Shown here: positions 24,238 to 25,836 of the stretch, one piece after another
Layout: each line of letters starts with the position of its first letter
Numbering within the stretch: position 1 is the stretch's first letter
Origin: an uncultured Chlamydiae bacterium
GTDB taxonomy: Bacteria; Chlamydiota; Chlamydiia; Chlamydiales; SM23-39
DNA length: 53,365 nt
Assembly (NCBI GenBank): GCA_937899275.1
Contig: CALBPE010000114.1
Span: 1-53,365, forward strand
Direction of reading: 5' to 3'
Position numbers and translations under genes: made by a program
The notes under the pieces: generated by a model
Databases searched by the model: none
What the model was told of the DNA's origin: nothing
What the model saw: only the letters and a program-made list of their open reading frames with translations

Positions 24238-25836
24238 TTAAGCAGGTTTTTGGTTGCGCACTTCAGCGCCGATCCAACCCTGGCTATAATTAGTAATCAC
24301 AATCGATTTGATCTCACTGATCAAACTCTGAATCTGTGATGATAACTCTTTCATCTTGATCGATATCGTCTGCGCCTGCGATGAATAAGCAGTAGATGCT
24401 GCTTGCATCGCTTGCTGGATTGTTCTTGTGATATCGGTTGGCCCCGAAGGTTTTTCTTTTCCTTGCGTTGTACTTCCTGGCTGATAGAAGGTTTTGTGAT
24501 CTTTAAAATACTGATCTACCTTATCCCAGCTAGAAATACTTGGATCTTTTAAAAAGTCTTCCATCGTATGACCTTGGTCATCGATTTTGGTTTTCATGAA
24601 CTGGCTAAAAGAGGAATCTGTTGTGCTGACAATATTGCTTCCAAATAGCCCTTGTAGCTGTTTTACCTCATACATCAAATGGGTCATTTCATCGGTCATC
24701 TTCTGTAGGTCTTTAGAAGAGATCCCATCTTTTGTTCCCATTTGCGCAAACTCTTTCTGGATGTCGGCCATCTTCTTACTCACATCGGATAAGTATTTGT
24801 TCAAAAATCCGTATCCGCCGTAGCTATACTGCATGTTGCTCATCGTCTGACCCATTGTGGCAAAGATCAAGGTGATGAGTACTGCAGGGTTTTTCTTAAA
24901 TCTTTTGACAAGGGAGTTTACTTCGTCCATGAAGATTTTGTGCAGTAAATCATGAAGATCTTTGTTGCCTTCGAAAAAACTGAGCATTTGTCCTACCATA
25001 AAATAATCAAAGTCATCGGGATCCATTGGATCTTCTTGCTGTTTTTTAATCCAGCTATCGATCCCTTTATTTTCATGGTCTGCCCAAAACGCGATCTGAT
25101 TGGCAAAAGAGTTTTCTCCCTTCATCTGGTCGAAATAAGCAGATAGCTTTTGCATCGCTTCTTTTGCTGCATCAGCGCCGCCATTTTTGTAGGCAAGGTC
25201 TCTTAAGGTATCGACCATAAGTTCTGCTAGCGTCTCGCCGTTTGATCCGGTAATTGAAGACAGCTGATTGAAAAACTTGTTGAATACCGCTGCAGTAGCA
25301 GGGGACATATCTCCCGATTTTTCCTTACTTAAAGCGGCCATAAACCAGCTTAAAAAAGCCATAAGCTGATCGGGTGAAGGAGACGCTTTTAAGCTGTTCA
25401 ACCAGTTTTGAAAAGCTGTTGCCATCGAGTCGGGATCATTTGGGATAGAACCGGGATCGACAGGTGGCAGCCCTGGTATAGAAGGAGGTGTAATTCCTAC
25501 GGGATGTTTATCCCGTGTAGAGGACTTTACAGCAGTTTTTCCTTGAGTAAATCCAGACGCTTTTGTCGCTGCAAGCTCTACTTTCATCTCTTCTTCTTTC
25601 AGCTTTTTTCCTAGACTTTCTGCTGCAGCCATGTTGCTAAACATATGCAATGGGCTTTGAGAAGGCTTGCTTTTGTTTTCTTCAAGAAGAGCGTCAATCG
25701 TGCTGGTGGTTTCCTGCACAAAGGCTAAGCGTAGCGTATCTGTAGAGGAGGTTGTTTTTACTTCTTCTACTTGGATTTGATCTGTAGTTGTTGCCTTTAT
25801 TTTGGCAAGTTGTTCTGTAGATAATTTATCTGTCAT
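24238..25836 (-). CDS. Hypothetical 532-aa secreted-type protein; needle tip/filament (SctA) candidate
   Basis: No signal peptide or TM segment. Pro-rich linker PPSIPGLPPVDPGSIPNDPDS. The C-terminal helix ends SLISEIKSIVITNYSQGWIGAEVRNQKPA, matching the SctF tail NLISQVNSVINSAVRNQKPQ. Confidence 0.4.
   Translation of the reverse strand: MTDKLSTEQLAKIKATTTDQIQVEEVKTTSSTDTLRLAFVQETTSTIDALLEENKSKPSQSPLHMFSNMAAAESLGKKLKEEEMKVELAATKASGFTQGKTAVKSSTRDKHPVGITPPSIPGLPPVDPGSIPNDPDSMATAFQNWLNSLKASPSPDQLMAFLSWFMAALSKEKSGDMSPATAAVFNKFFNQLSSITGSNGETLAELMVDTLRDLAYKNGGADAAKEAMQKLSAYFDQMKGENSFANQIAFWADHENKGIDSWIKKQQEDPMDPDDFDYFMVGQMLSFFEGNKDLHDLLHKIFMDEVNSLVKRFKKNPAVLITLIFATMGQTMSNMQYSYGGYGFLNKYLSDVSKKMADIQKEFAQMGTKDGISSKDLQKMTDEMTHLMYEVKQLQGLFGSNIVSTTDSSFSQFMKTKIDDQGHTMEDFLKDPSISSWDKVDQYFKDHKTFYQPGSTTQGKEKPSGPTDITRTIQQAMQAASTAYSSQAQTISIKMKELSSQIQSLISEIKSIVITNYSQGWIGAEVRNQKPA

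Follow-up and report, generated by a model that had tools for sequence, protein, structure and literature searches.

The stretch of DNA analysed here (the window; 53,365 nucleotides) is a contig of an uncultured Chlamydiae bacterium that carries type III secretion system (T3SS) genes, among them the gene for the needle subunit SctF/CdsF. A second gene (24238..25836, minus strand) encodes a protein of 532 residues whose C terminus matches that of the needle subunit. This protein, FAM532, is the founding member of a family that is confined to the Chlamydiota. In our reading, to which we give a probability of roughly 0.45, FAM532 is a hydrophilic axial protein of the injectisome that would be secreted and act as an SctA, either as the tip of the needle or as a filament that extends it. 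This is the simplest reading because the most conserved element of a hydrophilic protein encoded in the translocator operon is the terminal motif of the needle, placed at the same distance from the C terminus. In chlamydiae the injectisome is poorly defined at its distal end. Its tip component is, as the first-pass annotation of this DNA had noted, not firmly established, and CT584, the only named candidate, was still termed a "putative" tip in 2024 (PMC11512284).

Both open reading frames (ORFs) were found where the first-pass annotation had placed them, on the minus strand; the plus-strand translations contain many stops. The tails and DNA strings quoted there are exact as well, with SctF (18494..18754, minus strand, 86 residues) ending in ESISNLISQVNSVINSAVRNQKPQ and the 532-residue protein ending in QIQSLISEIKSIVITNYSQGWIGAEVRNQKPA. 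The last eight residues are EVRNQKPA in FAM532 and AVRNQKPQ in SctF/CdsF. In the family alignment the FAM532 tail reads I522-G-A-E-V526-R-N528-Q529-K-P-A532 (24241..24273, minus strand), corresponding to I-x-x-x-V-x-N-Q-x-x-x-COOH, and in the SctF alignment the needle tail reads I76-N-S-A-V80-R-N82-Q83-K-P-Q86 (18497..18529, minus strand). The 86-residue protein is assigned as SctF/CdsF because it is encoded between CdsE (Pfam DUF5398, 7.8e-14) and CdsG (NCBIfam CdsG, 1.9e-47) and because one of its orthologs gives a weak match to PF09392. CdsD lies upstream of this group and CdsN downstream.

Given the amino acid composition of the window, the probability of VRNQKP at one fixed position is 1.5e-8, and a scan of 44 window proteins found VRNQ in no protein other than these two. 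Three of the six codons for VRNQKP differ synonymously between the 532-residue gene and sctF (GTG/GTT, CGC/CGA, and CCT/CCA), which places the similarity at the level of the protein rather than in a recent copy of the DNA. The same codon differences, together with the differing tails of the orthologs, ruled out that the hexamer arose by recent gene conversion. The first-pass annotation had listed two shared elements. The terminal VRNQKP is exact in both tails, but the upstream element LIS-x-[IV]-x-S-[IV]-I was dropped as evidence; its resemblance is weak and probably compositional, because a nine-residue gap is needed to align it (BLASTP E = 0.002) and profile alignment with hhalign supports at most the last 14–23 residues. 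Judged from these alignments, the real shared feature is limited to the terminal ~11–14 residues, I-x-x-x-V-R-N-Q-K-P-x-COOH.

The core of this motif is conserved throughout the family. An alignment of 31 family sequences (~25% mean identity) has N528 in 29, V526 in 23, and Q529 in 21 of the rows. Apart from the initiator methionine, only G219 (30/31) is more conserved than N528, and V526 and Q529 rank among the top ten columns. When a 21-row alignment of the core is used, N528 is the sole column that is conserved at 90% or above. On the side of the needle, 81 distinct SctF sequences from chlamydiae all have N82 and Q83, and the motif is always three residues from the end.

The specificity of the motif was measured on 92 sources, comprising the window and 91 other loci (designated by L numbers), whose six frames gave 2,117 complete ORFs of 70 residues or more. 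The pattern [IVLM]xNQxxx at the exact C terminus is present in 87/88 SctF sequences and in 13/21 family ORFs, and in 0/~2,008 other ORFs. Counted over distinct family tails, 15/30 have the motif at the exact end and 21/30 have it somewhere in the final 10 residues. The further matches gained with this looser rule are one short, spurious-looking ORF and two short-form members of the family. The exact-end motif is probably ancestral, and the ...RANS/RASS extension of other members probably derived, since the deepest-branching members and the short forms have the exact end.

The tails of the orthologs also vary together with those of SctF, a co-variation that the first-pass annotation had proposed to look for and that is present, though weak. 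With tails anchored on the [IV] residue, the SctF and family tails of one genome resembled each other more than in shuffled pairings (n = 18; p ~ 0.007 with BLOSUM scores and 0.007–0.03 with identities), and a smaller set gave p = 0.004–0.045 (n = 9); these p values ignore phylogeny. The effect is modest, at 74 identities versus 66.7 expected. Among the pairs of SctF and family tails that bear the signal are NQKP/NQKP in the window, NQRV/NQRV in L004, AVTNQK/AVSNQK in L011, and GKQ/SKQ in L089.

Profile comparison gives a fainter picture. Aligned by hhalign, the SctF profile (81 sequences) and the family profile (31 sequences) match over the last 23 columns with a two-residue gap (E = 0.0018, probability 15%). 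The ungapped match covers the last 14 residues and keeps the hydrophobic register, with I at −11 and V at −7. A second co-linear match, between SctF 16–23 (STLIKQYK) and FAM532 307–314 (NSLVKRFK), is insignificant (E = 0.14). Seventeen other protein families of these loci served as controls for this SctF profile. The top match was a CT668-like protein (E = 1.9e-5, 78% probability, 44 columns, SctF 31–74 with residues 160–203), which is a true needle-like relative and acts as the positive control, and CdsE, m151 (the product of the gene downstream of FAM532), and CdsQ followed at E = 0.009–0.016, with the remainder at 0.045–0.65. Searched against the PDB sequences, the SctF profile returned zero matches. 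Because the alignment statistics are weak, our argument rests on the end-anchored, position-specific motif and its conservation.

The evidence of the tail can be set against a reading in which the resemblance is one of chance or composition, the [IV]xNQ tail serving a function unrelated to SctF and the VRNQKP of the window being an accident of its lineage. Amphipathic helices rich in Q, S, T, and N are common in T3SS substrates, and SctF compared with other helical proteins of the loci already reaches the hhalign E values of 0.009–0.016 given above. Most family members also fall in the noise of an SctF-tail hidden Markov model (HMM), the nearest orthologs depart from the window protein in three of the last five residues, and homology to known tip families is lacking. 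On the other hand, an accident would have to account for an end-anchored motif that is frequent in two families and missing from the background ORFs, for an N528 that few family residues surpass in conservation, with the same three-residue spacing to the C terminus as in SctF, for within-genome co-variation at p ~ 0.007, and for a hexamer at p = 1.5e-8. We consider a chance origin quite unlikely.

The family itself is rare. A word-indexed protein search with the 532-residue protein returned one homolog (44% identity); a 20-sequence profile in the same kind of search returned two proteins only, and a short form returned only its close relatives. HMMER, run exhaustively over 1.84 billion representatives, identified 20 family proteins. 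Addition of members from 80 metagenome loci, which had been retrieved with the SctF profile and were screened for the family, brought the total to ~30 distinct sequences. A scan of GTDB genomes with the family alignment matched a single Chlamydiota metagenome-assembled genome (MAG). All members come from MAGs or metagenomes of uncultured Chlamydiota, where the source annotation is "hypothetical protein" only. No member has a meaningful match in Pfam, NCBIfam, or the PDB sequences; PF09392 and SseC (PF04888) in particular match neither the window protein nor the 20 members. By these searches, FAM532 is a previously unannotated family without Pfam, NCBIfam, or PDB relatives.

Family members range from 264 to 587 residues and comprise long forms (450–587 residues) and short forms (264–291 residues). 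The short forms correspond to the C-terminal half only (HMM positions ~290–517), so that they consist of the core with an [IV]xNQxxx end. They are encoded at L056 5245–6039 (minus strand), L082 1467–2300 (plus strand), L032 2591–3466 (minus strand), and L089 3384–4181 (minus strand). They occupy the same operon position as the long forms and are without the N-terminal helical domain (residues ~120–300). In these four loci the gene for m295, which lies directly upstream of FAM532 in the window, was not detected either. The N-terminal domain and m295 therefore look like additions in the lineage of the long forms.

FAM532 is a hydrophilic, acidic protein (isoelectric point (pI) 5.5, grand average of hydropathy −0.5) without a transmembrane-like segment. 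Its maximum 19-residue Kyte-Doolittle value is 1.11, compared with 2.41 for the translocator m433 of the same operon. The segment AVLITLIFATMG was considered as a transmembrane segment, which would have pointed to a CopD-like translocator, and was ruled out by its hydropathy and by polar substitutions in the orthologs. An AlphaFold2 model of the full-length protein from a 20-sequence alignment is all-helical (mean predicted local distance difference test (pLDDT) 71, predicted template-modelling score 0.62). It shows a low-confidence region (residues 1–113), a confident helical N-terminal domain (120–300), and two long helices (317–366 and 468–529). Modelled alone, the core (residues 292–532; 24241..24963, minus strand) reaches a pLDDT of 80, with a small helical insert between the long helices. 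The C-terminal helix of 62 residues (468–529; 24250..24435, minus strand) is rich in Q, S, and T. Ahead of the folded N-terminal domain, at residues ~113–137 (~25425–25500, minus strand), there is a conserved proline-rich segment, PPSIPGLPPVDPGSIPNDP, which takes forms like P.DPNFPP.PF(D/N)P..VP in related members. By its sequence, this segment may recall the PxLxxP motif by which translocators bind class-II chaperones.

Foldseek searches of the PDB gave nothing significant, with best E values of 0.33 for the full-length model and 0.045 for the core. The top of the list for the core consists mostly of axial proteins, namely FlgL/FlgK junction chains, flagellin, and an FlgL fragment (probability 0.8–0.99, template-modelling score 0.3–0.48). 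IpaD is also among these non-significant matches of the core (probability 0.91, template-modelling score 0.42/0.50, E 0.26). Generic helical hairpins such as BAR domains, chemoreceptors, and designed bundles are on the same list. The modelled fold is compatible with a tip protein and is no evidence of membership. The inner tube of the flagellar axial proteins (FlgK, FlgL, and FliC) is built by terminal helices that successive components have in common; the core matches to them are non-significant (E >= 0.045), and sequence similarity was not found.

These flagellar matches bear on the possibility that FAM532 is a cap or nucleator of needle assembly, similar to OrgC or to FlgD/FliD, which would be secreted early and sit with an SctF-like tail on the growing end to promote or stop polymerization, instead of being a tip that senses the host. 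OrgC of Salmonella is secreted, binds PrgI directly, and speeds needle polymerization (PMC6066329), which provides a precedent, and an SctF-like tail would suit a cap, as would the weak matches to flagellar junction and cap complexes. The gene is predicted to be co-transcribed with the translocators, however, which are middle substrates, and not with SctF and CdsE/G. The family, at 264–587 residues, is also longer than the residue numbers of OrgC suggest (up to 141 in PMC6066329), and similarity to OrgC was not detected when the family profile was searched against the PDB sequences. A cap or nucleator is, in our view, very improbable.

The operon position is a further line of evidence for an axial component. 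FAM532 is encoded in a run of six genes for proteins of 142, 295, 532, 151, 433, and 315 residues (27194–21481, minus strand) with gaps of 4–26 bp; the neighbours are named here by their length. The CopB-like translocator that had been placed in the same operon, two genes downstream, is m433 (22453..23754, minus strand), which has two or three transmembrane-like segments and whose ortholog in L004 has a Pfam SseC match, in agreement with a hydrophobic translocator of the SctE/SseC/CopB type. By gene order, m315 (21481..22428, minus strand), the last gene of the module, occupies the position of the minor translocator SctB; it has no strong transmembrane segment. Both proteins end in ...RAV (ALARVMAARAV in m433 and MVSLNRAV in m315). 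The order m142, family gene, (m151), SseC-like gene, and m315 (~300 residues) is invariant in 19 loci with long and short forms, and it is the same whether the module is co-directional with CesT-CdsD-E-F-G or divergent from it; most of these loci include the gene of ~150 residues. Tip and filament genes stand in comparable places in the Ysc, SPI-2, and LEE operons (lcrG-lcrV-lcrH-yopB-yopD, sseA-sseB-sscA-sseC-sseD, and espA-espD-espB), and the order of the FAM532 module matches these.

The six-gene module ends at a hairpin with a T-run that resembles an intrinsic terminator (21412..21436, minus strand). This hairpin is strong and bidirectional, having a stem of 9–11 bp with five GC pairs and T-runs on both strands. 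A promoter-like site (21338–21310) precedes CesT-CdsD-CdsE-SctF-CdsG. Since these two elements lie in between, the family gene is assigned to the translocator operon, which is beside the needle operon yet separate from it. The first gene of the module encodes m142 (26766..27194, minus strand), a small acidic helical protein (pI 5.1). Wherever it was detected, m142 is upstream of the family gene; it is adjacent in the short-form loci, and in the long-form loci m295 or another ORF intervenes. From this conserved upstream position, m142 is a candidate for a dedicated chaperone.

This arrangement helps to weigh a different explanation of the shared tail, namely that FAM532 is a T3SS substrate (a translocon accessory protein or an effector) whose C-terminal helix and tail are a handle for CdsE/CdsG or for a site on the export apparatus before secretion rather than for docking at the needle. 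In the PscE-PscF-PscG and YscE-F-G structures, a tetratricopeptide repeat (TPR) chaperone buries the C-terminal amphipathic helix of the needle subunit, and CdsE and CdsG are encoded beside SctF in the window. The motif is exclusive to SctF and the FAM532 family, one common partner would also produce co-variation, and the module shows no sign of a class-II TPR chaperone. Against this, the conserved small acidic partner m142 argues for a dedicated chaperone, and the family gene is in the translocator operon, with a terminator between it and the needle operon. We regard the handle as an unlikely explanation, and it can be combined with a tip role.

The module contains one more protein that could be the tip, m151 (23759..24214, minus strand), a helical protein encoded between the family gene and the translocator. 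If m151 were the real tip, FAM532 would be some other translocon-associated factor. Searched against the PDB, the m151 profile matches best at the start of the C-terminal helix region of SipD (whole-sequence E = 0.0035, domain E = 0.11), its gene is directly upstream of the SseC-like gene, as espA is before espD, and EspA and SseB are close to m151 in size. The SipD match is marginal, however, with low posterior probabilities; 0/10 members have an IpaD or EspA Pfam match; the family is poorly conserved; and jackhmmer did not detect it in the module-bearing loci L010, L011, L022, L025, and L052. The SctF end motif is also missing from m151. This assignment has in our view only a slim chance of being correct. 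In hhalign, m151 has a weak similarity to the C-terminal helix of the FAM532 family (E = 0.0017) and to SctF (E = 0.0066). A role as a TPR class-II chaperone was ruled out for m151, as the TPR signal is missing.

Further results weigh against FAM532 as an axial component. The idea of a tip or filament candidate, put forward by the first-pass annotation, is supported in part, by the motif, operon position, hydrophilicity, helical architecture, and weak co-variation, but not by conservation of the exact hexamer or by a match to a known tip family. The nearest orthologs have LVQNQIQP (L001) and EVRNQIQP (L003), differing at three of the last five residues from the window protein, next to SctF tails of AVRNQKPQ and SIRNQKPQ. 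The first-pass annotation had named loss of the tail similarity in orthologs as a refuting outcome, and these tails count against a literal copy, although the core [IV]-x-N-Q stands family-wide; as far as these sequences go, the hexapeptide is lineage-specific and the core motif I-x-x-x-[VI]-x-N-Q-x-x-x-COOH is not. Of 30 distinct family tails, nine have no NQ in the final 10 residues, and in close relatives of one short form NQ is replaced by NS or NE. The co-variation test leaves phylogeny aside, the hhalign matches between SctF and the family are weak overall (E = 0.0018–0.006, probability 6–15%), and the family ranks second against the SctF profile, ~5-fold better than the helical background. 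Just two members, from the window and L011, rise above noise with the SctF-tail HMM (E ~ 0.2).

The same holds for the searches aimed at known tip families. LcrV (PF04792), IpaD/SipD (PF06511), and EspA (PF03433) gave no Pfam match to the window protein at E <= 0.1 or to the 20 members at E <= 0.01. The family profile matched only de novo helical bundles among all PDB sequences and no tip protein, and at E <= 10 it returned no chlamydial protein and hence no CT584/Cpn0803. The Foldseek results described above likewise include no significant match to a tip protein. Membership in the LcrV, IpaD, EspA, or CT584 families, for which the first-pass annotation had suggested a search, was therefore found neither by Pfam nor by PDB sequence nor by Foldseek. 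No named or cultured chlamydia, the Chlamydiaceae included, yielded a member of the family. Known tip proteins are not known to copy the terminal residues of needle subunits, and for that reason the docking mechanism that had been proposed from the shared tail is an extrapolation.

The features of an SctA protein that can be read from a sequence, namely operon position, hydrophilicity, and a long C-terminal helix, are all present in FAM532. The SctA tips LcrV/PcrV and IpaD/SipD/BipD are likewise hydrophilic and helical, have a long C-terminal helix, and are encoded with hydrophobic translocators. They differ in that the long forms of FAM532 are larger (450–587 residues) and that its model is without alpha/beta domains. 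EspA, SseB, and Bsp22 are also encoded upstream of sctE/sctB homologs and need a small chaperone, for which m142 is the FAM532 candidate, and the FAM532 core is essentially two long helices. In contrast to the EspA type, FAM532 is much longer, carries in its long forms a further helical domain at the N terminus, does not match PF03433, and gives no sign of filament polymerization in the present data. With SctF, FAM532 shares the C-terminal motif and a similarly Q/S/T-rich helix before it, whereas the family is 3–7 times longer, has no PF09392 match, and aligns in hhalign at E ~ 0.002 over 23 columns. CT584/Cpn0803 is another protein of this phylum for which a tip role has been put forward, but it has no sequence similarity to FAM532. 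At 183 residues CT584 also differs in size, as well as in genomic context.

An axial FAM532 would be transcribed together with the translocators, exported after completion of the needle, and docked onto the SctF needle at its distal end. The long C-terminal helix would serve for docking, and its last 11 residues, I-x-x-x-V-x-N-Q-x-x-x-COOH, may copy the segment of SctF responsible for subunit-subunit contacts and for lining the lumen. In this way the tip would extend both the lattice and the channel of the needle and offer a platform to the SseC-like and m315 translocators, while m142 would keep FAM532 from associating with itself before export. Needle subunits depend on their last residues for polymerization, as PrgI lacking its last five residues cannot polymerize (PMC6066329), the lumen of EspA is like that of the needle, and the coiled coil of the tip lines the lumen (PMC10333785). 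In pull-downs, CopD is reported to bind CdsF (PMC4068993). A more far-reaching version, which we hold only tentatively and think somewhat doubtful, is that FAM532 is the missing SctA of much of the non-Chlamydiaceae Chlamydiota. Built of a helix, an insert, and another helix, it could then be called an "expanded needle subunit" with an SctF-like end that caps or extends the needle and co-evolves with SctF.

The model predicts that I522, V526, N528, and Q529 mediate the contact with SctF. If it is correct, FAM532 adds a class with a new structure to the tip or filament proteins, and the literal sharing of an end motif by needle and tip gives a simple sequence rule for finding tip proteins. A scan of a proteome for the tail of the genome's own needle would then be a general search for tips, the Chlamydiaceae included. 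The question of the tip in the Chlamydiaceae is not directly settled, because the family was not found there; it is touched only indirectly, through this search rule. Should the tip reading be refuted, FAM532 would remain a conserved T3SS component, probably secreted and worth a name; it belongs to a new family that in many uncultured Chlamydiota has a fixed place in the translocator operon, beside the needle genes.

Several neighbouring genes showed features of their own. Proteins of the m142 type are encoded beside CesT-CdsD even where no family gene lies within 10 kb (L020 4905–5333 and L036 6913–7392), and their genes are duplicated in L008, L082, and L089; they have no Pfam assignment and form a candidate chaperone family. 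The acidic protein m295 (25852..26739, minus strand, 295 residues) has detectable homologs in only 4/19 loci (window, L001, L003, and L006), and in the other long-form loci its position is taken by an unassigned ORF of ~260–305 residues. Between ClpX and the module there is a divergent gene for 475 residues (27597..29024, plus strand) without a Pfam or NCBIfam match. Syntenic loci have ORFs of 431–709 residues at the same position, with homology detected in L001 and L006 only.

The CT668-like protein that heads the SctF profile control (17393..18034, minus strand, 213 residues) is encoded downstream of CdsG and has a needle-like C-terminal region. It has no NCBIfam name; its orthologs give weak PF09392 matches, and the tail ...[MF]NIQL is conserved. 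On this sequence similarity, it is a candidate for the inner rod protein (SctI) or for a second needle-like subunit.

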